DNA of 64,000 nt from Halanaerobacter jeridensis (GTDB taxonomy: Bacteria; Bacillota; Halanaerobiia; Halobacteroidales; Halobacteroidaceae), in the NCBI RefSeq assembly GCF_016908315.1, contig NZ_JAFBDQ010000005.1, forward strand, positions 1 through 64,000, in the 5' to 3' direction. Shown one piece after another: positions 4,490 through 62,485 of this stretch. A program made the position numbers and the translations under genes. Below the pieces are notes generated by a model, which saw only the letters and a program-made list of their open reading frames with translations, did no database searches and had not been told where the DNA came from. Position 1 is the first letter of the stretch; every line of letters begins with the position of its first letter.

Positions 4490-6280
4490 TCAAAAATTTT
4501 GGTTATAATTAAGATTAGGTAAGGCAATTAAACAACTTGCTTTTTTATGATATCCATAGCGATTAAGCCCCATATTAGCAAATAAAAACACATCCTTCTT
4601 GGCTCTGGTAATCCCAACATAAAAAATGCTAAGCACTTCTTCAAATTCTTCTCTTAAAGAAGACAAAAACTGGAATTTACAACATTTATCAAACTCTTCC
4701 TTCCCTTGTTTAGCACTACACAACTTGCAAAGTCCTTTTGAAGTAGGAAATGAGTATGCTGTAACTCTAGGAATGTATACATAATCCCATTCTAATCCTT
4801 TGGCACCATGTATTGTAGTTATTGTTATCCTTTCATCAATTTCATTCATTAAATGCTTTAAAGATTCATTTTCTAACACAAAAGAAATCTTTTCAAACTT
4901 TTTATTTTTTGATATATTTTCTGCTTTAGTTTTTTGAAACAATTTTTTTAATAACCTTAACAAGGAATTATATATATACATTGTATCATCTTCATATATA
5001 TCTTCAGTAAGCAATTCCTCCATTCTATCAACAACTCTACTTAGTACACGTTTTGCAATAGATTGATTGATACCACTTTCTTCCAAAAACACATCTAAAG
5101 CTTTCTCATGAAAAGCTACATATTCTCTGTCAGTATCATTGAATAATCCATTAAAATAGGAAATAGATTGTTCTTCTAATTTTTCAATTACCTCATTAGT
5201 ACAATAACTAGCTCGACACAAAATAGATACATCATCAGAATCACTAATCTTATCTTTAATATGTTCTACAATAAACTCGGCTTCTTTATGATTGCTCTTA
5301 AAAAATTTAAAATTCATTTCAGCTTCTTTATCAAAAGAATCCATCTCACTATAATTTAAAAAGATACTACGAATATAACTGTCTAATTTTTTCATCTTTT
5401 CATTATCATCAAATCTATGATTTGTTTTGAATCTCATTTCTTCCATATTAAATTCCTCAGCCATATGGTCAAACAAATCAGGAATAGCTCCAATAAAGCC
5501 ATAAATTTTCTGAATTTTATCTCCCATTAAAATAATTTCGTTTTCTCCCATTAATTTTGTAAGCAATCTATATGATAAATAATTAGTATCTTGAAATTCA
5601 TCAACAATAATCATTTTATAATATTGCTGATAAAAATTTCTAATTGATTTCTTATTTAATAAATAATAGGAAAAAAGCAATAATCCATTAAATGTAATAA
5701 CTTCATTAGGGATTAATATTTCGTTTAAAATCTCAAAATAATTGCTTTCTAACTTTTCAACATTATCAATATTTTCTTTTTCAAACCCATTAAAATTTTT
5801 AATACATTTGTCATACTCTGATAAAATGTCCATTTCCGAAGATGATAGATAATCCTTTAGCACTGCTGAATAATCGGATACTATTCTAAAAGAATCCATA
5901 GCCCCCAAATTTTTATTTAATAAATATCCATGTTTTTTTAACAAAATTCTTGCTAAATTATGATAATTTGCTACATCAAGTTTCTTGGATAAATCAACAT
6001 TTTCATCATCTAATAATTCAGGTAATAATTCATTAGTATCTTTTTTAATTTTATTAGCTGCATTTACGCTAAATGTAAGGGCTAATATTTTTTTATGATG
6101 TATTGTCGGATCTGTAACTATTTTGTAAGCAATTTTACTAATCATTGTTTTGGTTTTCCCATATCCAGCTGGAGCAGTTACAATTATTCTTTGTTTTTGA
6201 CTGAAAATAAAATCAAGTTGCTCTTCATCTTTTCCATGAATATCCTCAATTGATTTAGAAATAGCTTTTTTATTCTTCAT
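4490..6280 (-). CDS. gajB: UvrD/PcrA-like SF1 helicase, Gabija GajB-like (596 aa)
   Basis: Walker A VTAPAGYGKTKT, motif II IIVDEFQDTN, TIHGAKGLEWDYVYIP and YVGITRAKKDVFLF. It overlaps the upstream OLD-family gene by 11 nt. Confidence 0.8.
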   Translation of the reverse strand: MKNKKAISKSIEDIHGKDEEQLDFIFSQKQRIIVTAPAGYGKTKTMISKIAYKIVTDPTIHHKKILALTFSVNAANKIKKDTNELLPELLDDENVDLSKKLDVANYHNLARILLKKHGYLLNKNLGAMDSFRIVSDYSAVLKDYLSSSEMDILSEYDKCIKNFNGFEKENIDNVEKLESNYFEILNEILIPNEVITFNGLLLFSYYLLNKKSIRNFYQQYYKMIIVDEFQDTNYLSYRLLTKLMGENEIILMGDKIQKIYGFIGAIPDLFDHMAEEFNMEEMRFKTNHRFDDNEKMKKLDSYIRSIFLNYSEMDSFDKEAEMNFKFFKSNHKEAEFIVEHIKDKISDSDDVSILCRASYCTNEVIEKLEEQSISYFNGLFNDTDREYVAFHEKALDVFLEESGINQSIAKRVLSRVVDRMEELLTEDIYEDDTMYIYNSLLRLLKKLFQKTKAENISKNKKFEKISFVLENESLKHLMNEIDERITITTIHGAKGLEWDYVYIPRVTAYSFPTSKGLCKLCSAKQGKEEFDKCCKFQFLSSLREEFEEVLSIFYVGITRAKKDVFLFANMGLNRYGYHKKASCLIALPNLNYNQNF

Positions 6281-8923: not shown

Positions 8924-9781
8924 CTAGTAACTTTTTAATATATCTAAATATTCACTTTTTGTTTCATTATCATATAAACCCTTCGCTTCATTTAGAGTTT
9001 CTATAGCCCAGTCTACATATTTTTGATTTACTTTTTTACTATTTTCTATTTTTTCTATAAATCTTTCTATTTTATTTCTCAATTTATTGTTTACTGATTT
9101 TAATTTTTCTTCCAATTGTTCATTCTCTTCTGCTAGTTCTTCATTCTCTTCTGCTAGTTCTTCATTCTCTTGCTCTAATTGTTCTTCAATTTCTTTTAAC
9201 ATTTCTAATCTTTGTTTTAACCGTTGTGTTTCCTTCTTTTCTTGTTGTGTTTCCTTCTTTTCTTGTTGTGTTTCCTTCTTTTCTTGTTGTGTTTCCTTCT
9301 TTTCTTGTTGTAATTTCTTATCAGACTGCTCAACTGCCTCATCTAATGCACTTAACTCTTCATCACTCCATTCAGTACTTTCCTTACTACTCTCACCTTC
9401 ATTTAATATTTCTTTTATTTTGCTTTTAACCCAACTAGGAGCTTCTATAAAATCTTTTCTCAATCTTTTATTCTCTGATTTCAACAACTCTTTATAAGCT
9501 AAATCTAAATTAGAAAGATTATCTTTAGTCAATATATCTATTTCAATTAAATTTTCTGCGAATTCTCCTGGTTTCATAAATTTATCTTCTAATTTGCTTA
9601 TTTCTTCTAATTCGTCATATAATTTAGTTTTAGCCTTATTAGTACTTAATTCAGCTTGTTTTAGTTTCTCTTCTGTTAAACCATAATCCTCATTTAACTT
9701 AGTAGTTACATCATCTGCTAAAACATTCACTGTCAAAACCAATAGCAATACAATCAATAATAAAACACTTAACTTCTTCAT
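8924..9781 (-). CDS. secreted coiled-coil protein with tandem heptapeptide repeats (285 aa)
   Basis: N-terminal signal-like segment MKKLSVLLLIVLLLVLTVNVLA. It carries a QQEKKET x4 repeat and an ELAEENE repeat, is strongly charged and looks helical. It is the sole ORF of the cassette between sites 5 and 6. Confidence 0.6.
   Translation of the reverse strand: MKKLSVLLLIVLLLVLTVNVLADDVTTKLNEDYGLTEEKLKQAELSTNKAKTKLYDELEEISKLEDKFMKPGEFAENLIEIDILTKDNLSNLDLAYKELLKSENKRLRKDFIEAPSWVKSKIKEILNEGESSKESTEWSDEELSALDEAVEQSDKKLQQEKKETQQEKKETQQEKKETQQEKKETQRLKQRLEMLKEIEEQLEQENEELAEENEELAEENEQLEEKLKSVNNKLRNKIERFIEKIENSKKVNQKYVDWAIETLNEAKGLYDNETKSEYLDILKSY
9224..9307 (-). repeat. 4 x 21-bp perfect tandem repeat inside the coiled-coil gene
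   Basis: The unit ttgtgtttccttcttttcttg is repeated four times on the plus strand and encodes QQEKKET x4. A second 21-bp unit (ttcattctcttctgctagttc) is repeated just over twice at about 9121-9170. Confidence 0.85.
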
Positions 9782-25163: not shown

Positions 25164-25778
25164 TTAATTAAGCAATTTTTCTTTAACTATATATAAATCC
25201 TTTTCTTCCACTTTAGATACTACCACCGCAGCACTACCTTTTAGGATTGTATCTCCTACAGATTTAACATTAATCACAATCGGATAGCCATCAACCATAA
25301 TTTCTGCCTGCCCTATATTTTCTGCATTAATAGTAGATTTCAACACACAATCTTTTCCCACTATCTCTACACTGCTGCTATCTTCCATGGCGGCAAAAAA
25401 TCCTGTTAACGGCTCAGTTAAAGCCTTGGTAAGCAAAACTGCTATAATTATATTTTGCCCAAAAATTAAAAATCCCCCGAACGATTGGGGAGAAATATTA
25501 GTATAATACACTAACATACTTAAGACCCACAATACAAGAAATAAAATAGTCCCATAAATCATAATTGGTACCGCACCAATATTAAGAAACTTAATTATTT
25601 TAACACCGCCGTCAAAATACAGATTCGAAGAACAATCCAGGTCGAAATCAAGATCAAAATCTATCACATTAACTGAAAAGACTCCTAATATCACTGACAG
25701 CCAATAAAAAATAACTATCATTAACAACATCGACGGCAGTATATTTATCCCACTAAACGCAAATGCAATATACTCCAT
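25164..25778 (-). CDS. NfeD/YqiJ-like membrane protein (204 aa)
   Basis: Several N-terminal TM helices and a C-terminal OB-like tail (GQAEIMVDGYPIVINVKSVGDTILKGSAAVVVSKVEEKDLYIV). It lies upstream of the flotillin-like gene, the usual NfeD-SPFH pairing. Confidence 0.7.
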   Translation of the reverse strand: MEYIAFAFSGINILPSMLLMIVIFYWLSVILGVFSVNVIDFDLDFDLDCSSNLYFDGGVKIIKFLNIGAVPIMIYGTILFLVLWVLSMLVYYTNISPQSFGGFLIFGQNIIIAVLLTKALTEPLTGFFAAMEDSSSVEIVGKDCVLKSTINAENIGQAEIMVDGYPIVINVKSVGDTILKGSAAVVVSKVEEKDLYIVKEKLLN

Positions 25779-25960
25779 AAACCTTCATTCTCCTTTTGGC
25801 TTAATGATATTCTCTTGTGTAACTTTCTCGTTACTCATAACTCATCATTGTTATTTTTGTTTTAATTACACTTGGCAGTATTGTAATAAAACCTACAACC
25901 TAGACTTGGCAATGCAAAGTCTCTACAACAGTTAGAATCTCCACAAAACCGGAGTTACTG

Positions 25961-26400
25961 TTTTTGTTTTTTCTGTTTTACTCTTCACTGATTATTATTT
26001 TTCTTGTTACTTTTTACTTGTTACTCTTTTCTTGTCACTGCTTTTTCTTGTTACTGCTTTACTCTTGCACTTGACTTTTATTTTGTGTCTCTTTACTGAT
26101 CACTGTTTTACTGTTTTTATGCTTTATTCTTGAATTTGACTTTTATCTTATCTCTTCACTGATTACTTGTTACTCATCACTGTTTTACTGTTGCACTTGA
26201 CTTTTATTTTGTGTCTCTTTACTGATCACTCATTACTCCTCACTTTTTTTTATCTCTTCACTGATTACTTATTATTGTTTTTCTATTTCACTGTCTTTTG
26301 TGTTTTTTACTGATTATTTGTTACTGATTACTCATCACTATTATTCTGCTTTACTCTTGTATTTGACTTTTATCTCTTCACTAGTCACTCATTACTAATT
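25961..26400 (-). repeat. strand-asymmetric modular degenerate repeat array (purine-rich on the minus strand)
   Basis: GCACTTGACTTTTATTTTGTGTCTCTTTACTGATCACT occurs at about 26067 and about 26192. TTTGACTTTTATCT..TCTCTTCACT(G/A)(A/G)T.AC occurs at about 26134, 26246 and 26362. The region is built from the words TCACT, TTACT and GATTAC. Stop codons are dense in all minus-strand frames. Confidence 0.7.
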
Positions 26401-27192
26401 ACTATTATTACCTTCGTATTTATTCAAACTAGCTGCCATTTTTCTCAAATTGACAATACTTAAATCTAATTCACTATCAGCATGTTGGGAAATTGTTTTT
26501 AACTTTGCTAATTTTATTTTCATATTATCTAAGTCTGTAATTGCTTGTTCATTAATTGAAAGATATTTATTAATTGCCTGCAATTCAGTTAAAATCATCT
26601 CTTTTTTCTCTTTTAATGAGTTAAGTTCATCTCCCATCTCTGCAGTTAACTCATCTTTAGTTTCTAGTAACTCAATTCTTGAATTAATATAATTAAGGTT
26701 AATATCCTCTATCGATTGATAAATATCTTTAACTTGGGCCAAATTATCTAAAATATTATAGTATACTTCTTCTGTGACCCTCATGAATTTTTGATAAGTA
26801 ATTCCGTTTTTATCTAATTTGATATCTAAAATATTCTTAAACTTTTCAAACTTTTCAATCACTCTTAATAATTGATTTAAAGCCAAACGAGCACTTTCCT
26901 GATAATGATTAGTATTTGTCAAATCACTAAATTGAGTCTTTAATTCAGCAATAAAGGAAATTATCTCCTGCTTATAAGAAACATTACCTGTTCGCATTTT
27001 ACTCTCATCTATATCTACTTTTAATTTTTCTTCTTTTTTATATCCATTGCTTAACGACAAATTTAGCACCTCCACTAATAAGGCACCTGCTAAAATCCCC
27101 CATCCAAACTGCTGCAGAGAGTCAACAAACAAAATGATTTCTACGCTCACTACAATTGGAACCAACTTTTGAATAAGCAATTTTTTAATCAA
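26395..27192 (-). CDS. membrane protein with a C-terminal coiled-coil (265 aa)
   Basis: Two N-terminal hydrophobic helices, then a helical region. The architecture reminds me of XpaC/TelA-associated proteins, but I cannot verify this. Confidence 0.45.
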   Translation of the reverse strand: MIKKLLIQKLVPIVVSVEIILFVDSLQQFGWGILAGALLVEVLNLSLSNGYKKEEKLKVDIDESKMRTGNVSYKQEIISFIAELKTQFSDLTNTNHYQESARLALNQLLRVIEKFEKFKNILDIKLDKNGITYQKFMRVTEEVYYNILDNLAQVKDIYQSIEDINLNYINSRIELLETKDELTAEMGDELNSLKEKKEMILTELQAINKYLSINEQAITDLDNMKIKLAKLKTISQHADSELDLSIVNLRKMAASLNKYEGNNSN

Positions 27193-27290
27193 CTTTACTC
27201 CCCTATCTTTTATTACATTATTTTGAAAAATATACTGTTTTTAGAATACCATTTAATATTTTAGATGTCAAGTAATATCTAAGTTACTGC

Positions 27291-27333
27291 AAAAATTCAA
27301 TAACTCCCTGTAATCAATGATTGCAGGGAGTTA
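27291..27333 (-). terminator. intrinsic terminator after the PfkB kinase gene
   Basis: Stem TAACTCCCTG (27301-27310) with CAGGGAGTTA (27324-27333), with a T-rich tail on the minus strand. Confidence 0.6.
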
Positions 27334-27362
27334 CATTAATATTATTATATTGCTGATAAAGG

Positions 27363-29434: not shown

Positions 29435-29732
29435 TAAAAATGTTCGTCTACCCATTTTTATCTTTTTTTAGTTTTTTCTTTTTAAATTTTGAATTTACTC
29501 TTTACTTTTTATTTTTTAATTGTCACTCTTCACTAATTACAACTGGGCACTACCAGTTTCTCATTCTTTAAGAATACTTTGCCCAGGAGCAACTATTTTT
29601 ATTTGACCGCCAGTAGAACACATTAATTTAGAACCTTCCAATAAAGCAGACTGTTGACCAACTTTCACGTTTTCTTTCACCTTAGTCCATGGTGAGGGAA
29701 GACTAGGCGTACAAGAGCTTTCAGTAATTTTG

Positions 29733-29925
29733 CAATGACCTACTTGAAGGGCAAGCCCGTTCAGGTTTCTTCATTCATTGAAACGAGCCTAATCTAAACC
29801 TACCGAAATGGTAAGACAAATCAGGTCTTACAGTTTCTAGACCAGCCAAAAGACTGGTTGAGGCAACTTACAATGCCTCCAGAAGCTTGAATTCCCGTCA
29901 GCCCGACGGTATGTATTATATTTTA
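29733..29925 (-). ncRNA. predicted TnpB omega/right-end RNA scaffold (orphan copy)
   Basis: Near-identity to the segment between the tnpB stop and the right end of the full IS. This is by analogy to the known origin of TnpB guide RNAs in the IS right end. Expression was not assessed. Confidence 0.45.
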
Positions 29926-30087
29926 ACCCTTTTCTAATTTTATAGAGCAGCTTGGTTGTCGCTTACTCTTTATCGTAGGGTTTCATTTTTTTGACTTATA
30001 TTTAGTATATCTTATTTTAGAAATAATATTCAATTATTTCTAAAATGTTGTCATTTAACCCAAAGGCAAGCCCATTAGGGTTTTCTG
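29733..30087 (-). mobile_element. non-autonomous IS200/IS605-derived miniature element (PATE/MITE-like, 355 bp)
   Basis: Bases 29733 to about 29925 are about 95% identical by eye to the right end of the full IS at 44814 to about 45005. The left-end hairpin CCCAAAGGCAAGCCCATTAGGG resembles CCCAAGGGCAAGCCCGTTGGG of the full copy. Both copies are inserted 3' of TTGT on the minus strand. Confidence 0.8.
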
Positions 30088-30906
30088 ACAACTAATGCAA
30101 TAACATTTGCAATTAAATTACCACAGACTTTAGAATTATGTCCTGATACTACTTGTAATTGACTGGGGGTACTTCCAGCGCTACATTTCAGCCTTGCACC
30201 AGAACAGACATACAACTGACCTCCTCCACTAGAACTTCCTTGACTATTACCGCCGCTATTATTTTTGCTCGTCTGACTATAACTTGCTCTATTATTACTG
30301 TTCCTATTAGTTGCTGCACCTTGTTTTCCTTTCTCTTTCTCACTACTGCTACCAACACTAGCAGCAACTTGACCTTGAGCTTTACTTTGTTCTTTGTTTT
30401 GCTGCTTTTTATTTTCTTCTTTTTCTTCCGGAAAGACTATCTTATCGCCTCGGTAAATCCATAAAAAATTATTTTTTATTCGTTTTTCTTCTTTTAAGTA
30501 TTGATTTTCTTTCACTCCTAGTACTGCACCTTTAGTATCTTCTTCTTCCGCACTTTGCTCAAATATCTTTCCTTGCTCTAAATAATAAGGAGCAGGTTTA
30601 TCTAGCCACAAACCATAATCCCCTTCTTTAAAATCATCAATTAAAGCCCAATTTAATTCATTATTCTGATCTAAATATAACATCACTAAGTTACCATCTT
30701 CTTTACGGTATTTATTATCATATTGATCTTTATAATCTATATCTTCTTCCTCTGTTTCTTTAATCCCCGGGCCAATCAAATTGCCATTAATCTTAATTTT
30801 AGTTTTTCTTTTTTCTAAATCAATATTAATTTCACGCTCATCTTTAGCTAGTTTAGTCTTTTGATATTCATTCTTTCCTGTCATTTTACCCCACCCTCAA
30901 ATAATT

Positions 30907-36521: not shown

Positions 36522-36549
36522 AAACTTACTATTTACTTTTTATCTTTTG

Positions 36550-41950: not shown

Positions 41951-42008
41951 TTTGCTCACTCCTTTCCTAAATTCTATATAAATCTTCACTTTTTAGTGAA
42001 GATTTATA

Positions 42009-42150
42009 GTAATTAGTAACAAGTAAAGAGTGATGAGTAGAAAATCAAAAACAAAGTCAAAACCAAGTTCAAAAACTATAATCTTAGTGGTTGTGTCTTT
42101 TTTAAGATTTTGATTTTATGGTTTTGACTCATTACTGATTACTCTTTACT
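42009..42150. repeat. imperfect inverted copy pair of the AGTRA-word repeat family in the hypD-hypE spacer
   Basis: The left arm AGTAATTAGTAACAAGTAAAGAGTGATGAGTAGAAAATCAAAAACAAAGTCAAAACC and the right arm GATTTTGATTTTATGGTTTTGACTCATTACTGATTACTCTTTACT share their vocabulary (AGTGATGAGTA, GTAATCAGTAA, AAAGTCAA) with 25961-26400. Confidence 0.6.
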
Positions 42151-43263
42151 ATAAAGTTTCATTTTCACTGAAACTTTATATAGGTACGCCGCGCAACTCC
42201 CCTCCTGCGAGACCATACATGGGCCCAGAGGATGTGATGGAGTACATTTTGTCCCAAATAACTCACAATCAGTTGGCTTTTTTATTCCCATCAACACCTC
42301 TCCACAACTACACCCCGACTGTTTTGCTACTTTACCAGTTGCAGAAGCAAAATCAAATTTATTCTCAGCAGCAAATTCTTGATATTCCGGCCTTAATTCT
42401 AACCCTGAATTAGTTATCTTTCCCAAACCACGCCACCGACTTACAGTAGAGGTGAAAACTTGCTCCATAATCTTTAAAGCCTTTGGATTTCCTTTCTGTT
42501 CGACAACTCTAGGATAGGCATTGACTACTTTAGCTTCCTGTCTTACAATCATCTCCATAATTTGCTCTAAAGCAAAGAGAATATCACCTACTTCAAAACC
42601 AGCTACAACAGCAGGTAAATCATATTCTTTAGCCAAAAACTGAAAAGGTTCTACTCCAATGATACTAGCTACATGCCCCGGACACAAAAAGCCATCTATA
42701 TCTAAGTACTGATTTAAAACTAACTCTTCCATCACCGGCGGCATTGTTTTGAGAGCTTGTAACAAAGAATAGTTAGTCAGATTCTTTTTTTGCGCGTCTA
42801 AAATACTTAACGCAATCACAGGCGCAGTAGTTTCAAAACCAACAGCTAAAAATACAACTTCTTGTTCAGGATTATTTTCAGCAATCTTGACAGCATCTAG
42901 CGGTGAATATACTGTTTTAACATTTGGCCCCTGGGCTTGTTCTAATTCCAAAGTACTGTTACTACCCGGCACTTTTAAAAAATCAGCAAAAGTTGCTACC
43001 ATTACTCCTTCTTGCTGAGCCAAACTAATAGCAGTATCTATATAACTAAACGGCGTTACACAAATTGGGCAGCCTGGACCTGTCAATAATTCTACATTAG
43101 ACGGCAGTAGTTCCCGCAGCCCAATCTTCGAGATAGCCTGCGTATGAGTACCGCAAACTTCCATTATTTTAATCTTTCCTTTAACTACTGTGAATTCTTG
43201 CTGCAATTTTTCTAAGAGTTTACTGTTTATCTTTGCAGCCCTAAATTGTTCTAAGTAATTCAT
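42139..43263 (-). CDS. hypD: hydrogenase maturation protein HypD
   Basis: 374 aa with the CGTHT-type motif (EVCGTHTQAI), GPGCPICVTP and FLCPGHVASIIG. Confidence 0.85.
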   Translation of the reverse strand: MNYLEQFRAAKINSKLLEKLQQEFTVVKGKIKIMEVCGTHTQAISKIGLRELLPSNVELLTGPGCPICVTPFSYIDTAISLAQQEGVMVATFADFLKVPGSNSTLELEQAQGPNVKTVYSPLDAVKIAENNPEQEVVFLAVGFETTAPVIALSILDAQKKNLTNYSLLQALKTMPPVMEELVLNQYLDIDGFLCPGHVASIIGVEPFQFLAKEYDLPAVVAGFEVGDILFALEQIMEMIVRQEAKVVNAYPRVVEQKGNPKALKIMEQVFTSTVSRWRGLGKITNSGLELRPEYQEFAAENKFDFASATGKVAKQSGCSCGEVLMGIKKPTDCELFGTKCTPSHPLGPCMVSQEGSCAAYLYKVSVKMKLYSKE

Positions 43264-43493
43264 CTTTCTTCCCCCGCATCTTGGGCCAAATCTCTAAAAG
43301 CAGCTAAAGTTTCCTGGGCTGCAGATTGATTTAACTTTTGAATCGCACATCCCGAATGAAGCAGCACATAGTCTCCTACCTCTACTTCCGAAATCAAAGT
43401 AATATTGACTGTCTTTCTAACTCCTTTTACTGCTCCTACAGCCTCTGTATCATTAACAATTTCTATAACTTTAACCGGCACAGCAATACACAT
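43260..43493 (-). CDS. hypC: hydrogenase maturation protein HypC
   Basis: 77 aa beginning MCIAVPVKV. It overlaps hypD by 4 nt. Confidence 0.85.
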   Translation of the reverse strand: MCIAVPVKVIEIVNDTEAVGAVKGVRKTVNITLISEVEVGDYVLLHSGCAIQKLNQSAAQETLAAFRDLAQDAGEER

Positions 43494-44813
43494 TACAAAT
43501 GACCCCTCTCTTGATAATTAGCTACTGCTAATTGTCCTACTGCTAAGCCCTCATCAGTACAAGGAATCTTATGAGGTAGATGAACTTTAAATCCCCCAGC
43601 TGTTAACTTGCGATAAACCTCAATCAATAAGATCTGATTCTGCCATACCCCTCCACTTAATACTACATGATCTAATTTGAATTGTAGTCGCAATATCTCA
43701 CATAACCTAACACTAAAATTAATCACTGTATTATGAAATTTACGAGCAATCATACCTGCATCTACTCCCGCTCTTAAATCAGCAGCAATTTCTTTTATCA
43801 AAGTGGTAATCAAAATCTGATACTGACCTGCTCTCTTGCTGATTTGATAATTATAACTATCATTATTATTAACAGTTTGAGCTGCAGTTTCTAACTTAAG
43901 AGCAGCCTGCCCTTGATAACTCCTTTTTAAACACAATCCTAATAGAGCTGCTACTGCCGCAAATAATCGTCCAAGACTAGAAGTAAGAGGACAATTAATA
44001 TCTTGTTCTAACATTTGCTCTACTGCAGCTAATTTATCAGGCTTTATTTGAGACATATTTTGAGTAAAGATTTCAGTTACTTCTATTCCCGCCTGGTGGA
44101 GATAACTAACTGCCATCCGCCATGGTTCCTTAACTGCTTGATCTCCGCCGGGTTGAGCTACATACTGCAAATGACCTACACGCATAAAATCACTATAATC
44201 ACAAATAAAAAACTCCCCCCCACAAGTGACCATCAGTTCCTAAACCTACTCCATCAAAAGCAATTCCAATCACCGGTTGTTGGAGTTGATGTTCAACCAT
44301 AGAACTGACTAAATGGGCATGATGATGCTGCACTGCTATCTTCTCACCTGGTAATTGCTGAGCATAATGAGTAGAATAATAACCCTCATGTAAATCATGA
44401 ACAATTAACTCCGGTTCTATATCATACAACTGCTCTAAATGTTCAATATTATCTTGATAACGTTGGTAAGTCTCTAAGTTACTTAGACTGCCTGTGTACT
44501 GACTTACAAAAGCAAATTCTCCTTTGCTGAGACAGAATGTATTCTTTAAATCTCCTCCACAGGCCAAAGTAGCTACCTCTGAGCTTACTTTAATCACTTG
44601 TGGTGCAAAACCACGGCCGTGTCTAATTACTCGTTCATGACCAAGGGCTACATTGGTTACTGCATCATCTACCGGCACCTCTATCTTGCGATTATGTAAT
44701 AAACAGTAGTCAGCTACTGCAGTTAATTCTTCTCCTGCTCTTTGATTAGTATATTCTAACGGTAGTCCACTTAAATTTCCACTTGTCGCTACTAATACAT
44801 CAAGTCCATGGGC
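43493..44813 (-). pseudogene. hypF: hypF, C-terminal (Kae1-like) part, itself frameshifted
   Basis: ..AHGLDVLVATSGNLSGLPLEYTNQRAGEELTAVADYCLLHNRKIEVPVDDAVT.. then ..GLGTDGHLWGG, with a frame change in the C7 run at 44215-44221 (G7 on minus), then EFFICDYSDFMRVGHLQYVAQPGGDQAVKEPWRMAVSYL... The first codons of the ORF-track ORF 44199-44855 derive from the IS right end. Confidence 0.8.
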
Positions 44814-45047
44814 CAATGACCTACCTGAAGGGCAAGCCCGTTCAGGTTTCTTCATTCATTGAAACGAGCCTAATCTGAACCTACCGTAAATGGCAAGACA
44901 AATCAGGTCTTACAGTTTCTAGACCAGCCAAAAGACTGGTTGAGGCAACTTACAACGCCTCCAGAAGCTTGATTTCCCGTCAGCCCGACGGTAAATATGT
45001 TTTTTATGAGCTTCACGAAAAGTCCGTTAGGACTTGTAGGATGTGGA
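44814..45047 (-). ncRNA. predicted TnpB omega/right-end RNA region
   Basis: A structured, comparatively GC-rich 234 bp lies between the tnpB stop and the IS right terminus, and is conserved in the orphan copy. By analogy to characterised TnpB systems the guide would be read from the flank beginning at 44813. The boundaries are not determined. Confidence 0.45.
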
Positions 45048-46181
45048 CTAACCTGCTAACAGTTTCTTTCCTTCTTGGAGGATATTCAAACTTGCGTTAA
45101 GGTCACGATCATGTTCAGCACCACATTCACAGGTCCAGTTTCTTACAGATAGATCTTTAACATTTGGATTTTTAGTTCCACATTCGTTGCAAGTTTGAGA
45201 ACTTGCGAAAAATCTATCTACCTTTTGAATGATACAATTATACCAGTCACCTTTATATTCTAGCATATCTGTAAATTTGCCCCAAGATACATCTGTTATA
45301 TGTTTGCCAAGTTTGCTGTTTTTGACCATACCTTCAATGTTTAAGTTTTCAAGACAGATAAATTGATTTTCTTTAACTAGTCTTGTACTTAATTTATGGA
45401 GGAAATCAGTTCGTACATTTTTGATCTTTTCATGTACTTTAGCAATCTTATGTTTGAGCTTTTGCCAGTTATTAGAACCTTCTTTTTTACGAGCTAATTG
45501 TTTTTGTAATCTGGCTAGTTTATTTTCATATTTAGAAAGATGTTTAGGATTTTCTATCTTTTCGCCCTCTGATGTAATAGCAAAATCTTTGAGACCTAGA
45601 TCAATTCCTATCTGACCATCATTGGAATAATTAACTTCTACAACTTTAATTTTTTCAACATTGATAGAGATATAATACTTTCCTGTTCTTGATTTAGAGA
45701 CTGTAACATTATTTAATTTACCTCCAATATTTTCTTCACTATAATTAGAAAATTTGATCCAAGAAACTTTAGGAAGTTTGATTTTATTTCCTTTGATTTC
45801 TATACTTTCAGTTCCGCTAGATCGTTTAAAATATTCGGTACGATATGATAGTCGAGAACCTTTCTTGCTTTTGAAATTAGGGAATCCTTTATCACCGTTA
45901 AAGAAATCTTGGAAAGCTTTATCTAGATCTCTAATTGATTGCTGCAAAGCTATAGAATCAGCATTTTTAAGCCATGAAGTTTCTTCCTGATTTTTAAGTT
46001 TAGGAAGATCTTTAATATATTGAGTTTTATTTGCATAGCCATTTTGTTTAGCTTTGTCTAAAAAATAATTATATACCCATCGGCTAGACCCTATAGTTTG
46101 GTTGATTATATCTTTTTGCTTTTGATTTGGATATATCCGACATTTATATCCCCGTTCGATAGGAACAAATCGCTTAATCAT
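45048..46181 (-). CDS. tnpB: TnpB (RuvC-like RNA-guided nuclease family, 377 aa)
   Basis: RuvC motifs IGIDLGLKDFA, ICLENLNIEGM and DRDLNASLNI, and the zinc ribbon CNECGTKN...CECGAEHDRD. Confidence 0.9.
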   Translation of the reverse strand: MIKRFVPIERGYKCRIYPNQKQKDIINQTIGSSRWVYNYFLDKAKQNGYANKTQYIKDLPKLKNQEETSWLKNADSIALQQSIRDLDKAFQDFFNGDKGFPNFKSKKGSRLSYRTEYFKRSSGTESIEIKGNKIKLPKVSWIKFSNYSEENIGGKLNNVTVSKSRTGKYYISINVEKIKVVEVNYSNDGQIGIDLGLKDFAITSEGEKIENPKHLSKYENKLARLQKQLARKKEGSNNWQKLKHKIAKVHEKIKNVRTDFLHKLSTRLVKENQFICLENLNIEGMVKNSKLGKHITDVSWGKFTDMLEYKGDWYNCIIQKVDRFFASSQTCNECGTKNPNVKDLSVRNWTCECGAEHDRDLNASLNILQEGKKLLAG

Positions 46182-46197
46182 AATTTGACCTCATTCC

Positions 46198-46602
46198 CTA
46201 TTTAAGGTTTTGATTTTTTATATAATTTCTAATAGTTTCAATATTAGCATTACCTACTGTATCTACAAAATATCCTTTGCTCCACAAAGAACCACAACGA
46301 TCATAAAAAATCTTTAATTTAGGATGTTCCTTGAAAAGTTTAATTGCTGATATGCTTTTAATAGTTCTTACTATATCAGTAGGAGCAACTGTGGGTCTAG
46401 CAGATACAAAAATATGAATGTGATCTGGCATTACTTCTAACTCTAATATTTTATAGTTATATCTGTTACAAATATTAATGATAATATCTTTTAAAGATAA
46501 AGCTATATCGCCATTTAAAACTTCAAATCTGAATTTAGGACACCAAACTAAATGATATTTGATGGAATATTTACAATGGTTAGTAGAATTATATTCATTC
46601 AT
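46198..46602 (-). CDS. tnpA: IS200-type Y1 (HUH) transposase TnpA (134 aa)
   Basis: HUH motif PDHIHIFVS and a C-terminal catalytic-Tyr region (ETIRNYIKNQ). Confidence 0.9.
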   Translation of the reverse strand: MNEYNSTNHCKYSIKYHLVWCPKFRFEVLNGDIALSLKDIIINICNRYNYKILELEVMPDHIHIFVSARPTVAPTDIVRTIKSISAIKLFKEHPKLKIFYDRCGSLWSKGYFVDTVGNANIETIRNYIKNQNLK

Positions 46603-46756
46603 TTAAATCATACTTTTCTTTGATACTTCTACGCATTAAATCTAAATAGCTTAGTGTAGTCTCTTCTTCAACTGAATAAATACTAGCTAAATTTTCTAAT
46701 TCCCGATCAAAAGGAATTGCAATATTAATTTTAGTATTATCTTTACTTGAAGACAT
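46595..46756 (-). CDS. small ORF inside the IS left end, possible ribbon-helix-helix protein (53 aa)
   Basis: MSSSKDNTKINIAIPFDRELENLASIYSVEEETTLSYLDLMRRSIKEKYDLNE. It overlaps the tnpA start by 8 nt. A beta-strand-like INIAIPFD is followed by helical segments. It is below the ORF-track size cut-off. Confidence 0.35.
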   Translation of the reverse strand: MSSSKDNTKINIAIPFDRELENLASIYSVEEETTLSYLDLMRRSIKEKYDLNE

Positions 46757-46854
46757 TTTATTTGCTCCTTTAACACATATTATCCCACAATAGATTATAT
46801 ATTATGTGAATAGTTGTGTTCTTGACCCAAGGGCAAGCCCGTTGGGTTTTTTAC

Positions 46855-47434
46855 ACAAAAACAATAACTGTGGCCCACAATCAGGGCAGGCATTTGGCTG
46901 AGCATGAAAGCGCCTGCTAGTCGGATCTTGATATTCACTAAGGCAATCTTCACACATACTAAAATCAGACATAGTAGTTGACTCCCTGTCATATGGTATA
47001 CTCTCAATAATTGAAAAGCGTGGGCCGCAGTTCGTGCAATTAATAAACGGATATCTATATCTTCTATCATCTCCATCTAATAATTCCTCTTGGCATTGTG
47101 AACATAAAGCTGCATCTGGAGTCACAAAGGTTAACTGTTCATTATCATCTGTACTATCTTTGATTTTAAAATGTTGATAATTCGTAGATTGCAGCTGGTT
47201 GATTATTATCTCTTCTATTTGGGCCAAGGTTGGCGGATTAGATTTAATTTGATTAATCAAATTAGTTACTCCCCGCAGCGAGCCCTGCACATCAATTTCT
47301 ACCCCCTGCTGAGTATTATTAACTTCTCCTTGTACATCATAATGCTGAGCTAAATTATAAACAAAGGGTCTAAAGCCAACTCCTTGTACTATGCCCTTTA
47401 CTATCACAAACTTACGAATTACTTGCTCATTCAT
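46855..47434 (-). pseudogene. hypF: hypF, N-terminal part (acylphosphatase plus zinc fingers)
   Basis: VIVKGIVQGVGFRPFVYNLA (acylphosphatase-like), then CSQC...CTNCGPRFSII...CEDC...CPDCGPQLLF, where the IS begins. The tail of ORF 46802-47434 is IS-derived. Confidence 0.8.
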
Positions 47435-53662: not shown

Positions 53663-53714
53663 AAAAAGACCCCTACTCGCTGAGAAGATAAAGTAATCCC
53701 CAAGCAAGTAGGAG
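53663..53714 (-). terminator. intrinsic terminator after LysM paralogue 1
   Basis: On the minus strand, CCTACTTGCTTGGGGATTACTTTATCTTCTCAGCGAGTAGGGG is followed by TCTTTTTT. Confidence 0.6.
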
Positions 53715-53835
53715 CCATCAATTGCTATATTTAGCAATAGTTAAAGGCGAGCTCCATCGCCTACCATTTAATTTTAGCAGATTAATTATAAGATTGCAAT
53801 CAAAATTTGTAGACTAATTATTTTACTGCCTTTTT

Positions 53836-59504: not shown

Positions 59505-59685
59505 AATCTGTCAGCGTTCAGTTGTCAACCTTCAACGGTTAGACGAAGACTCTATGAGCTCTGAGCAGTGAGGCAGGAGTTGAAATATTACTAGTTGAAA
59601 GCTCTTAGTTGTCAGCTCTCAGCACTTAGAAGAAAAGATAGGATATTGAAGTTAAGAACATAAAGGCAAACTCTTTTTAAGACAA

Positions 59686-59718
59686 AGAAGCCATGCCCTT
59701 TCGGGCATGGCTTCTTTT
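59686..59718 (+). terminator. intrinsic terminator between the convergent DprA-like and ATPase genes
   Basis: Stem AGAAGCCATGCCC (59686-59698) with GGGCATGGCTTCT (59703-59715), followed by TTT. Confidence 0.65.
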
Positions 59719-59779
59719 AGCTAGTTCTTTTTTAGCTTTTAGCTGACTACTACTGATAGTTGACAGCTAATTACAGCTA

Positions 59780-62485
59780 TTAAGTGCTGCTTTGTCTAAT
59801 CTTCAGTACCTGAATTATTACATTCGGAATAATAAATCCTAGTGAAATAGCCGGCCACATTCCTAACGGAATAGCCGTAGTCTTTAAAACTGTCTGTAAA
59901 AACGGATTATAAATAGCTAGTATCTGTAATAGAAAACTAACTACAATCGACAAGATCAAATATGGATTTTCTAATACTGACTTGTCATATCCAGTTCCCT
60001 TTTGCCGTCGAACATTAAAGGCATGCAGCAACTGGGTAAAGGAGAACACAGCAAAACTAATGGTGCGACTTAACTCCACACTATATCCGCTGTTTAAGAC
60101 TATTAAATAAGTAACCAAGGCTCCAGCAGCAATCAAACTACTGTGCAGCAAAATTTCTTTCTTAAAATCATCATGTAAAATCGGCTTATCAGGGTCACGC
60201 GGTGACCTGCTCATGACATTAGGTTCTGCTACTTCCCATCCTAAAGATAAAGCTGGGAAGACATCAATTACTAGGTTTAACCATAAAATCTGTAACGCTA
60301 ACATTGGAACAGGCACTTGTAGTACTATACCTAAGAAAATAAGAATAATTTTACTTAAGTTACTTGAAAAGAGATAGTACATAAACTTCTTAATATTATC
60401 AAAAATAATTCGCCCTTGCTTAATAGCACTAACAATTGTACTAAAGCTGTCATCAAGCAGGACTATATCTGCCGTATTCTTAGCTACAGAAGTACCGCGT
60501 TGGCCCATAGCTACTCCAATATCAGCTTTTTTCAAAGCTGGAGCATCATTAACGCCGTCACCAGTCATAGCCGTAATCTCATTATTTTGATTTAAAGCAT
60601 CAATAATTTCTAATTTATTTTCCGGCGACACTCTCGTAAATACCGAATGAGTCTTAATTGCACTACTACGCTCTGCTGTCGTCATAGCATCAAATTCTTG
60701 CCCTGATAAATCAGAGTTGCTATCTTTGCTAATCCCAACTTTTTCAGCAATAGAAACAGCAGTATCGCGTTGATCACCAGTAATCATTTTAGTTTCAATT
60801 CCTGCTGCTTGCGCTTCTTGAATTGCATTAGCTGCTTCTTGCCGCGGGGGATCCATAATACCAGCTAATCCTGCAAAAACCAAACTAGATTCAATTGCTT
60901 CCTCAATTTCAGCTTCAGTTTCCGCCCTCACATCGGCTCGATAAGCAACAGCTAAGACACGCAGGCCATTTTGGGCCAAGGCTTGATTGCGCTCGGTTAG
61001 CTCATCAATCCTCTGTTCGGTTAGTTCTTTCTTTCCGTCAGTAGTTAATTCCTGATCACACATTTCTAAAACTACATCCGGCGCACCTTTAACAAAAATA
61101 TAATCGCCGTCGGGAATCTCATAAGAGACAGCCATATATTTCAATTCCGAGCTAAAAGGAATCTCTTCTAAACGTTGATAATCATTATCTTCCATTTTTT
61201 CTTTATCATAACCAGCCTTGTGGGCAGCAGTTACTAATGCCCCTTCAGTTGGATCGCCTACTACTTTCCAAGCTCCTGTTTCATCTTGATTAATCGCAGC
61301 ATTGCTGCATAAAGCTCCTGACTGTAAAAAGAGATCTAAATTCTTTTTCTCAGTTGCAGTTAACTGACTACCGTCTGCATCTTCAAACTCACCCTGCGGC
61401 TCATAGCCCGTGCCCGTTACATTTATCTCAGCATCAGGCAGTATAATCTGGCGTAAAGTCATTTGATTTTCAGTAATTGTACCTGTTTTATCAGTACAAA
61501 TAGTAGTCGTTGAACCCAGTGTTTCTACTGCCGACAAACGCCTAACTAAGGCATTTTTATCTACCATTTTGTTCATGCCAATTGCTAAAGTGATAGTTGC
61601 TACAATTGGTAATCCCTCAGGCACAGAAGCAATTGCTAAGGCAATACCTGTTTTAATCATTTCTTTGATTGGCTGTCCGACCAAAATTCCAATCCCTGTC
61701 ACAATCACTGCCACTACCAAAGTGATTTTAACTAAGGCTTTACCCATTGTATCCAATCTTTCTTCGAGCGGAGTTTCTTCTTGTTCAGTCTCTTGCAGCA
61801 TGTCACTAATTTGGCCCATTTCAGTGTCAGTACCGGTTCCAGTTACCAGTACTTCCGCATTACCTCTGGTCACTGAAGTTCCCATATAGACCATATTCTC
61901 TCTTTCAGCTAAAGCTATCTCTTCATCAACCGTGAAATTATGGTCTTTCGCTACCGTCTCCGATTCTCCTGTTAAAAGTGATTCGTTAATCTGCAGTTTA
62001 TCCGCATCAAGCAGTCGACCATCAGCCGCAACCCGGTCCCCTTCTTCAATTACTAAGATATCACCAGGGACTACTTCAGTTGCTTCAATTTCAATCGTTT
62101 TTCCGCCGCGGATTACTTTTGCAGTTGGTGAAATCACCTCTTTTAAAGCGGCAAGAGATTTTTCAGCTTTATACTCAGTAATAAATCCAAAGGCTCCATT
62201 AAATATAATAACTGCTAACACAGCCGCCCCTTCTATTACATCACCAATCGCAAAAGCAGCAATTGCAGCAACTAACAAAATTAATACAATTATATCTTTA
62301 AACTGCTCTAATAGTACTTCCCAAATTGAGACTTCACTTTTTTCTTCTAACTTATTTGGCCCATATTCTTTTAATTTTTGTTGAGCTTCACTACTGCTCA
62401 GACCAGTTTCTGTATCAACTGCGAAGTTCTCTATTAATTGCTCTAAATCCTGTTGATAATAATCTTCAGTAGATTTAGATATAAT
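59780..62485 (-). CDS. P-type cation-transporting ATPase (Ca2+/type II-like, about 901 aa), apparent non-ATG start
   Basis: ICTDKTGTITENQM, MITGDQRDTA and TGDGVNDAPALKKADIGVAMG. The frame stays open upstream of the ORF-track start (..STEDYYQQDLEQLIENFAVDTETGLSSSEAQQKLKEYGPNKLEE..) back to ATT/ATA codons at 62485/62482, 4-7 nt after AAGGAGGG. There is no in-frame ATG, GTG or TTG there. Confidence 0.8.
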   Translation of the reverse strand: MISKSTEDYYQQDLEQLIENFAVDTETGLSSSEAQQKLKEYGPNKLEEKSEVSIWEVLLEQFKDIIVLILLVAAIAAFAIGDVIEGAAVLAVIIFNGAFGFITEYKAEKSLAALKEVISPTAKVIRGGKTIEIEATEVVPGDILVIEEGDRVAADGRLLDADKLQINESLLTGESETVAKDHNFTVDEEIALAERENMVYMGTSVTRGNAEVLVTGTGTDTEMGQISDMLQETEQEETPLEERLDTMGKALVKITLVVAVIVTGIGILVGQPIKEMIKTGIALAIASVPEGLPIVATITLAIGMNKMVDKNALVRRLSAVETLGSTTTICTDKTGTITENQMTLRQIILPDAEINVTGTGYEPQGEFEDADGSQLTATEKKNLDLFLQSGALCSNAAINQDETGAWKVVGDPTEGALVTAAHKAGYDKEKMEDNDYQRLEEIPFSSELKYMAVSYEIPDGDYIFVKGAPDVVLEMCDQELTTDGKKELTEQRIDELTERNQALAQNGLRVLAVAYRADVRAETEAEIEEAIESSLVFAGLAGIMDPPRQEAANAIQEAQAAGIETKMITGDQRDTAVSIAEKVGISKDSNSDLSGQEFDAMTTAERSSAIKTHSVFTRVSPENKLEIIDALNQNNEITAMTGDGVNDAPALKKADIGVAMGQRGTSVAKNTADIVLLDDSFSTIVSAIKQGRIIFDNIKKFMYYLFSSNLSKIILIFLGIVLQVPVPMLALQILWLNLVIDVFPALSLGWEVAEPNVMSRSPRDPDKPILHDDFKKEILLHSSLIAAGALVTYLIVLNSGYSVELSRTISFAVFSFTQLLHAFNVRRQKGTGYDKSVLENPYLILSIVVSFLLQILAIYNPFLQTVLKTTAIPLGMWPAISLGFIIPNVIIQVLKIRQSST

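Follow-up and report, generated by a model that had tools for sequence, protein, structure and literature searches.

A degenerate, hierarchically repeated heptanucleotide array in an intergenic spacer of Halanaerobacter jeridensis

An intergenic spacer of Halanaerobacter jeridensis carries an array of degenerate AGTRANN heptamers that is nested within a longer repeat. The spacer lies between a 265-amino-acid (aa) gene and a 204-aa membrane protein gene in a 64,000-nucleotide (nt) stretch of the genome, referred to here as the window; the analysis covered contig positions 1 to 64,000 (NZ_JAFBDQ010000005.1), to which all window counts refer. The main array is probably a degenerate, hierarchically duplicated heptanucleotide repeat that originated in place, evolves by slippage and unequal recombination, and is carried on a probable read-through tail, and this account requires no specific function. 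It is best read as belonging to an already known class of bacterial intergenic simple-sequence repeats (SSRs), as a mixed-unit relative of the long SSR (LSSR) and short tandemly repeated repetitive (STRR) heptamers. Heptamer arrays are among the commonest and least understood non-coding features of bacterial genomes. The present locus is a clear example from the Halanaerobiales, with a nested 7-nt and 63- to 66-nt structure and unit-sized insertions and deletions (indels) between near-identical strains.

A 7-nt register in the spacer

For the window as a whole, the GC content is 33%. Because nearly all genes lie on the minus strand and the plus-strand GC skew is negative throughout, the minus strand is probably both the leading and the sense strand. 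When segmented at AGT on this strand, the main array (Table 1) resolves into heptamers that include AGTAATC, AGTGATG, AGTAATG, AGTGATC, and AGTAACA. The 443-nt core holds 38 AGT triplets compared with 7.5 ± 2.6 in composition shuffles, and 32 of the 38 belong to AGT[AG]A. Successive AGT-AGT intervals are exactly 7 nt in 16 of 42 cases, and the autocorrelation is highest at lag 7 (0.52), with further peaks at 14, 21, 63, 95, and 126. Chains of at least four AGT-phased heptamers occur seven times in the window, compared with 0.06 times in shuffles, and four consecutive AGTRANN units with at most one mismatch give 11 window matches, compared with none in 100 shuffles. The organizing principle of the array is thus a 7-nt register, which was absent from the original prediction. 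The 16 exact-7 units comprise 10 unit types and are accompanied by 8-mers and longer inserts.

Above the heptamers lies the higher-order unit, in which a run of three or four AGTRAnn heptamers is followed by AGAGAYA..AAAAGTCAARTNCAAGAGTAAAGC. Repeat-finding software recovers this organization: across 25955-26244, Tandem Repeats Finder (TRF) reports periods of 63 to 65 nt (about three copies, 74% matches), 14, 29, and 7 nt, the last with 63% matches. Two interleaved units, of 38 and about 35 nt, had been predicted. Both are present, the former within a 61-nt family of four copies and the latter as a 37-nt family of six copies (at 25999, 26148, 26211, 26250, 26299, and 26370). The copies of the 61-nt family at 26044 and 26170 agree at 90% of positions and end in the identical 40-nt stretches listed in Table 1.

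The spacer had also been described as free of open reading frames (ORFs), strand asymmetric, and, on the minus strand, full of stop codons in all frames, and each part of this description stands. The gap contains just two short ORFs (43 and 48 aa, with TTG or ATG starts), both on the plus strand in T-rich sequence. The minus strand of the array is 75% purine, almost 4 standard deviations above the window mean of 56% (standard deviation, 5%), and carries 15 to 20 stops per frame, compared with 3 to 8 on the plus strand. A coding role was therefore rejected, since the sense strand is closed in every frame and the plus strand offers merely these two ORFs. The first heptamers contain the TAG that ends the 265-aa gene (26395-26397), and TAA and TGA come next in frame.

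The downstream limit of the array, at approximately 25925, is marked by a conserved block. Common to the window and a relative with 70% identity, this block consists of the near-palindromic CTTGGCATTGCCAAG, then TAGGTTTT, then TACTGCCAAG, just upstream of the 204-aa gene; it is not found in Orenia marismortui. In the window, the near-palindrome CTTKGCATTGCCAAG is joined by a third half-site, ACTGCCAAG, ahead of TAGGTTTT. From its sequence, the block looks like a candidate promoter/operator region of the YqiJ/NfeD-like gene. The NfeD-like label itself, taken from the original prediction, is faintly supported, since the sole match of the 204-aa protein is to YqiJ_N at an E value of 0.1. Between the block and the gene, the small heptamer-phased patch at 25824-25849 sits in a stretch that has no counterpart in one relative (L001).

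Table 1. Coordinates of the array, its neighbours, and related sites in the window
Feature	Position	Strand	Description
Gap	25779-26394		Between the 265-aa gene and the 204-aa gene
Main array	25961-26403	Minus	Degenerate AGTRANN heptamers in a 63- to 66-nt higher-order unit
Exact 40-nt duplicate, copy 1	26065-26104	Minus	B-type unit core; minus-strand sequence AGTGATCAGTAAAGAGACACAAAATAAAAGTCAAGTGCAA
Exact 40-nt duplicate, copy 2	26191-26230	Minus	126 nt (two higher-order units) from copy 1
Conserved block	25869-25925	Minus	Array boundary, outside the repeat; near-palindrome CTTTGCATTGCCAAG, then TAGGTTTT, then TACTGCCAAG
Small heptamer-phased patch	25824-25849	Minus	ATGAGTTATGAGTAACGAGAAA; in the 5' leader of the 204-aa gene
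204-aa membrane protein gene	25164-25778	Minus	Downstream of the array
265-aa gene	26395-27192	Minus	No Pfam family
Degenerate patch	29455-29545	Minus	AGTGAAG AGTGACA ... AGTAAAG AGTAAAT; between two convergent gene ends
Minor patch	36526-36548	Minus	AAGTAAATAGTAAG; has the stop codon of a 247-aa gene; just upstream of a terminator-like hairpin
hypD-hypE spacer	41974-42183	Both orientations	Composite inverted repeat
Different, weaker word set	59505-59780		TAGTTGNNAGCT and TGTCAGCNNTCAG, three copies each

Elsewhere in the window, the word family recurs at other intergenic sites, as had been proposed. There are 25 phased AGTRAnnAGTRA dimers: 23 are in DNA outside ORFs, which makes up 20% of the window, and the remaining two overlap the 3' ends of genes. 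Beyond the main array, they lie at 42008-42042 (plus), 42125-42150 (minus), 29495 and 29523 (minus; these lie in the patch previously noted at about 29490-29545), 36526 (minus), and 62498 (plus). At four of five sites (26395, 42139, 36550, and near 29561), the AGT strand is the sense strand and the repeat starts at or just after a stop codon; the words are antisense at 42008-42042 and 62498. The different word set said to fill 59505-59780 is present as well, yet it is limited to short families of 12 to 13 nt and makes a weaker case. Its words stand on both sides of a perfect 15-bp hairpin (59684-59717) between convergent genes; they show no AGTRA phasing, and no relation to the main array was shown.

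Strains, relatives, and known heptamer repeats

Unit number was compared among strains. A strain whose neighboring protein is 99% identical (contigs L007 and L008) aligns through the array with few substitutions. Its array differs by a block of 66 nt immediately behind the GGTAAT codons of the gene, by an additional AGATAAA heptamer, and by an indel of a single nucleotide. Because of these indels, the stop of the 265-aa gene is shifted, giving 264 aa instead of 265 aa. In the relative with 70% identity, the orthologous spacer is 384 nt long and has loose AGT words at its ends only, and in O. marismortui it is 185 nt long and has no such words. No phased AGTRA dimers were found in about 45 kb from relatives (about 32 kb of the 70 to 76% relative and about 13 kb of O. 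marismortui). In the sequences compared, the array is lineage restricted, and the more distant relatives lack it.

The effects of the array that can be read from these comparisons are limited. The spacer is longer and hypervariable, the last codons and stop of the adjacent gene are rewritten, and short-read assemblies are broken, with contigs of the same or near-identical strains (L007/L008 and Logan) ending inside arrays. At hypD-hypE, the inverted arrangement produces a strong hairpin and a 10-codon extension of hypD. Such arrays are thus able to rewrite gene 3' ends, and, besides breaking short-read assemblies, they are potential strain-typing markers.

Heptamers are reported to be the most overrepresented long SSRs of prokaryotes, with polymerase slippage as the proposed origin (Mrazek 2007, as cited in PMC4679880 and PMC4692102). 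They are intergenic, change in 7-nt steps between strains, sometimes form inverted pairs, and break assemblies (PMC4679880; PMC4692102); the GGGAATC and GGGGAYT repeats, for example, include inverted pairs (PMC4692102). In the literature searched, no report was found of such arrays in Halanaerobiales or of Halanaerobacter repeats. The main array resembles the LSSR class, as that class is described in the papers citing Mrazek 2007 (PMC4679880; PMC4692102), in its 7-nt period, intergenic position, unit-step length changes between close strains, sporadic lineage-specific occurrence, occasional inverted pairs, and slippage as the proposed origin. Its head-to-tail period of 7 nt exceeds chance, it is mostly intergenic, and its copy number changes by unit steps. 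In contrast to an LSSR, it lacks a single near-perfect unit (10 unit types among 16 units; 63% matches in TRF). It is not a pure tract, since it mixes at least 10 related heptamers with 8-mers and longer inserts and has a 63- to 66-nt higher-order repeat.

The TAACTGA repeats occur in Beggiatoaceae, Cyanobacteria, and Bacteroidetes, where they stand among other heptamers, vary by 7-nt indels from strain to strain, are missing from relatives, and coincide with contig breaks (PMC4679880). The plus-strand units TTACTGA and TCACTGA of the window are one base from the TAACTGA unit of that study (MacGregor 2015, PMC4679880). The likeness extends to the intergenic position, the mixing of heptamers as in Microcystis, contigs that end in repeats, and relatives whose shorter spacers have no repeats (PMC4679880). 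However, the window contains neither TAACTGA nor TNACTGA as a tandem dimer, and the TNACT strand is here antisense to both flanking genes. The window array also follows a stop codon, whereas the BOGUAY pattern is forward and immediately upstream of start codons (PMC4679880). The cyanobacterial STRR sequences of Calothrix and Nostoc, as cited in PMC4692102, are likewise tandem intergenic heptamers. They differ in unit sequence and phylum and are scattered as many tracts that are fairly pure. Two of the three classical STRR units (CCCCAGT and CAACAGT) contain AGT.

Four consecutive AGTRANN units were also sought across phyla, with one genome per species; all figures given here are among the matches listed. 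Arrays were found in Planctomycetota, Acidobacteriota, Bacteroidota, Cyanobacteria, Chloroflexota, Cloacimonadota, Bacillota, and candidate phyla, at 31 to 67% GC. They use the same words as the window (AGTGATG, AGTAATG, AGTGACA, AGTAAAA, and AGTAATC) and are often inverted pairs around a hairpin. Among the listed arrays (at least 187, approximately), 88% lie outside long ORFs, though long ORFs make up 83% of the sampled DNA, and the two orientations relative to the upstream ORF are almost equally common (83 versus 68 among the matches listed). The control cores ATG, GAT, and TAG gave full lists of matches too (viral contigs), and a quasi-random 0.76-Mb sample, which is too small to judge AGT specificity, contained two perfect heptamer arrays. 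No claim of AGT-core specificity is supported, and the cross-phylum matches partly reflect the chosen pattern. In one Cloacimonadota metagenome-assembled genome (L018, about 4870-4935), an AGTGAAC/AGTGACA array lies approximately 40 nt downstream of an apparent 5S rRNA 3' end, which reads like an example, judged on sequence, of heptamer arrays closely abutting RNA or gene ends in other phyla.

Origin of the array and alternative explanations

The array would have arisen in place within non-coding DNA. It would then grow, shrink, and diverge both through slipped-strand mispairing in the 7-nt register and through unequal recombination or slippage between the 63- to 66-nt units. It would be transcribed only as the read-through 3' tail of the 265-aa gene, which is probable because no terminator-like site lies between the stop of that gene and the array. 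The resulting RNA would be purine rich and unstructured, with stops in every frame. Such properties could account for the tolerance of the array immediately behind stop codons.

Some points weigh against this account. The near-neutrality of the array is something that we infer. The array is not a pure SSR, given its at least 10 unit types and its 63% matches at period 7 in TRF, and slippage alone does not explain why AGTRA is retained while positions 6 and 7 drift. The sense-strand placement after stops at four of the five sites could be a product of selection rather than of tolerance alone, for example if the array served in a 3' untranslated region (UTR) or as a backstop with stops in several frames. 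Finally, distribution and orientation were seen in 64 kb of the genome only. The sense-strand, post-stop placement provides a concrete hypothesis for the whole genome; if the array is merely slippage debris, it is ordinary.

Other identities were considered for the array. A known RNA family was rejected, since an Rfam search of the whole window at gathering thresholds gave only a fluoride riboswitch elsewhere; a permissive search of 25600-26600 added only a subthreshold CrcZ match (22.8 bits, compared with a gathering score of 95) and SpF11. A structured RNA was rejected because the fold of the array is not significant (z of -1.7 on the minus strand and -0.3 on the plus strand). An independent transcription unit was rejected because the minus strand of 25779-26400 shows no site resembling a promoter or a terminator. 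A replication origin or iterons were rejected because there are no DnaA boxes near the array and the GC skew is uniformly negative. A cyanobacterial source of the DNA, suggested at first by the resemblance to STRR, was refuted by proteins homologous to those of Halanaerobiales and by HypD, which matches the NCBI protein of H. jeridensis at 100% identity.

Among the rival explanations, an RNA platform or sponge is unlikely. In this scheme, the array, as a 3' UTR or processed RNA, would use its approximately 32 single-stranded AGU(A/G)A motifs to titrate or recruit an RNA-binding protein of the Hfq, KH, or S1/Csp type, like CsrB/RsmZ and CrcZ. The scheme is consistent with the fact that the purine-rich strand is that of both flanking genes, with the missing terminator-like site ahead of the array, and with the prediction that the RNA has essentially no structure. 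Motif density is high (38 AGT versus 7.5 expected), the words follow stops on the sense strand at four of five sites, and the subthreshold CrcZ match points the same way. S1, Csp, or CsrA-like binders have in addition been suggested for the TAACTGA repeats (PMC4679880). However, sponge small RNAs, which resemble the array in carrying tens of short-motif copies over hundreds of nt, have features that are missing here: the array has no promoter or terminator and hence no transcription unit of its own (25779-26400, minus), it contains only one GGA and none in hairpin loops, and the CrcZ match (22.8 bits versus 95) is far under threshold. In addition, near-identical strains differ in the array by entire units, relatives lack it, the same words are antisense at 42008-42042 and 62498, and orientation is nearly balanced in other genomes (83 versus 68 among the matches listed).

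In a broader form, the AGU(A/G)A arrays of Halanaerobacter would be functional RNA rather than slippage debris, in the form of long unstructured 3'-UTR or intercistronic tracts right after sense-strand stops, which we consider distinctly unlikely. If this were true, a protein that binds single-stranded RNA would be recruited or titrated by the tracts, or the tracts would stop ribosomes in all frames, and copy number would tune expression. They would then be a Gram-positive counterpart to the regulatory role that has been proposed, and never shown, for the TAACTGA repeats.

It is quite improbable that the array acts at the DNA level, either as a phased array (three units of 7 make 21 bp, about two helical turns) with binding sites for a regulatory or nucleoid protein or, upstream of the YqiJ/NfeD-like promoter, as bent or insulating DNA. 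The array does end about 35 to 45 bp upstream of the conserved promoter/operator-like block, the autocorrelation also peaks at 14 and 21, and deletion of heptamer repeats is reported to alter the promoter response at Nostoc recO (bioRxiv 10.1101/2022.06.06.494920). However, the conserved block persists in relatives whose array is far shorter or missing, 440 bp with strain length differences fits a spaced operator array poorly, and no candidate binding protein is known.

The original prediction compared the spacer with modular intergenic families such as the BOX elements of Streptococcus pneumoniae. In those elements, conserved modules recur in many copies around the genome and form stable stem-loops. 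The likeness lies in the intergenic position, the modular look, and the Gram-positive lineage; in contrast, the long modules of the window are confined to one locus and the main array is unfolded, and only the hypD-hypE copy folds (z = -6.6). Probes for the 33-nt and 22-nt modules (at most three mismatches) match nowhere in the window outside the main array. A dispersed higher-order unit was rejected after a metagenome scan with the unit head, AGTRATSAGTRAAGAGAYA: only 2 of its 120 loci are heptamer arrays, both in unrelated organisms of higher GC content, and the other loci look like chance matches. The comparison with BOX-type elements is thus not borne out, since no long module turns up elsewhere in the window, neither strand of the array folds significantly, and the metagenome matches are at chance level. 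What recurs is a 7-nt register with a loose AGTRA vocabulary, not a conserved element.

A mobile modular repeat of the BOX, enterobacterial repetitive intergenic consensus (ERIC), or miniature inverted-repeat transposable element (MITE) kind, whose modules spread through intergenic DNA by transposition or recombination, is accordingly very improbable. Such a repeat would suit the presence of the word family at several intergenic sites and the short-read contigs that break at array sites. It would also suit the hypD-hypE copy, with its inverted arms, flanking hairpins, and z of -6.6, at a place where relatives hold a different hairpin element. On the other hand, no further copies of the long modules were found in the window and no family of them in the metagenomes, the main array has no terminal inverted repeats, target duplication, or fold, and strains differ by unit-sized internal indels rather than by presence or absence of a defined element. 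The alignment of the 3' arm at hypD-hypE with a T-rich tract of a relative, described below, also favors a local inverted duplication there.

A translational backstop, in which heptamers with TAA, TGA, or TAG give all-frame stops within three units (7 = 2 × 3 + 1) and end read-through or frameshifted translation, is extremely doubtful: the sense strand has 15 to 20 stops per frame, the 265-aa gene ends TAG-TAA-TGA in frame, and three genes have their stop codons within AGTRA words, but two or three units would suffice, leaving 440 nt unexplained, relatives manage without the array, and the pattern is indistinguishable from mere tolerance of stop-rich repeats.

The hypD-hypE spacer and other features of the window

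The hypD-hypE spacer contains an AGT-heptamer arm on the minus strand (42119-42150), which overlaps the hypD stop (42139-42141), and an inverted copy of this arm on the plus strand (42008-42053). The imperfect inverted pair predicted at 42009-42150 was recovered here as 42008-42150, with 54-nt arms that are 76% complementary. Two small perfect hairpins (41977-42008 and 42150-42180) flank the pair, and the RNA fold has a z of -6.6 compared with shuffles. The HypD proteins of relatives (96% and 76% identity) end in ...AYLYKV and a stop, whereas in the window hypD runs on into the AGT arm and is 10 codons longer. The pyrimidine-rich 3' arm aligns with a preexisting T-rich, heptamer-like tract upstream of hypE in a relative; the window structure therefore looks like a local inverted duplication, as far as alignment can indicate. 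With respect to a MITE, inverted arms were seen, no target-site duplication was recognized, and the window holds no second copy.

The corresponding spacer of the relatives (L252, 4100-4345, and L251, 4096-4195; 76% and 96% HypD identity, respectively) holds a different element of approximately 250 nt. This element has long, nearly perfect inverted arms, GGAAGTGAGATGC...GCATCTCACTTC, and the L252 spacer is 423 nt long. In the same operon of the window, hypF is disrupted (43493-46860): a 246-aa piece (HypF_C_2) and a 218-aa piece (the Sua5 end and HypF_C) overlap out of frame. Upstream of these pieces lies an IS200/IS605 insertion sequence (IS) with tnpB (45048-46181; OrfB_IS605 and a Cas12f1-like TNB domain) and tnpA (46198-46602; Y1_Tnp). 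HypF is intact in the relatives L251 and L252, at 758 to 771 aa. Because hypF is broken by this IS copy, the hyp operon is decaying here and, with it, the hypD-hypE spacer may be under relaxed constraint.

A second trace of this IS was found on the minus strand within 29561-30884, where a DUF4280 (PAAR-like) domain is split by an ORF-free, GC-richer insert of about 310 to 350 nt (29738-30084). A 269-aa ORF (30075-30884) stops in the N-terminal half of the domain, the C-terminal half is readable at approximately 29766-29561, and the joined halves match PF14107 over positions 1 to 109 of 109 (E = 6e-20). In its 3' part (about 176 nt), the insert is almost the same as the sequence directly following tnpB in the IS copy (44830-45010), with 92% mean column identity over 228 columns, diverged flanks included. 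Its 5' end carries the GGGCTTGCC hairpin, which is common to the left end of the IS200/IS605 copy. On these two matches, the insert is taken to be a non-autonomous IS200/IS605 derivative, with a likely omega-RNA/right-end region. The insert gave no Rfam match at E ≤ 1, and a Logan contig of the same strain breaks at it.

Homologues of the 265-aa protein were found in Halanaerobiales only (O. marismortui, 61%; Natronospora; and metagenomic relatives, 99%, 75%, and 70%). In relatives, a TelA gene of 391 to 392 aa lies directly upstream of the 265-aa gene (L001, 4811-5989; L004, 4814-5989). The window (27193-27362) and the 99% strain have no TelA, and PfkB immediately precedes the 265-aa gene. 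Downstream lies a conserved cluster of a 679-aa protein with no Pfam family and a 1,624-aa DUF3686/DUF7902/AAA ATPase.

The fluoride riboswitch (RF01734) is at 53702-53770 on the minus strand (48.7 bits, E = 2e-10). The other most purine-rich minus-strand stretch of the window is formed by perfect 21-nt tandem repeats in a 285-aa ORF with no Pfam family (8924-9781, minus). These repeats, at 9119-9171 and 9223-9311, comprise 2.5 and 4.2 copies that are 100% identical and probably encode a 7-residue protein repeat, the copy number of which is able to vary.

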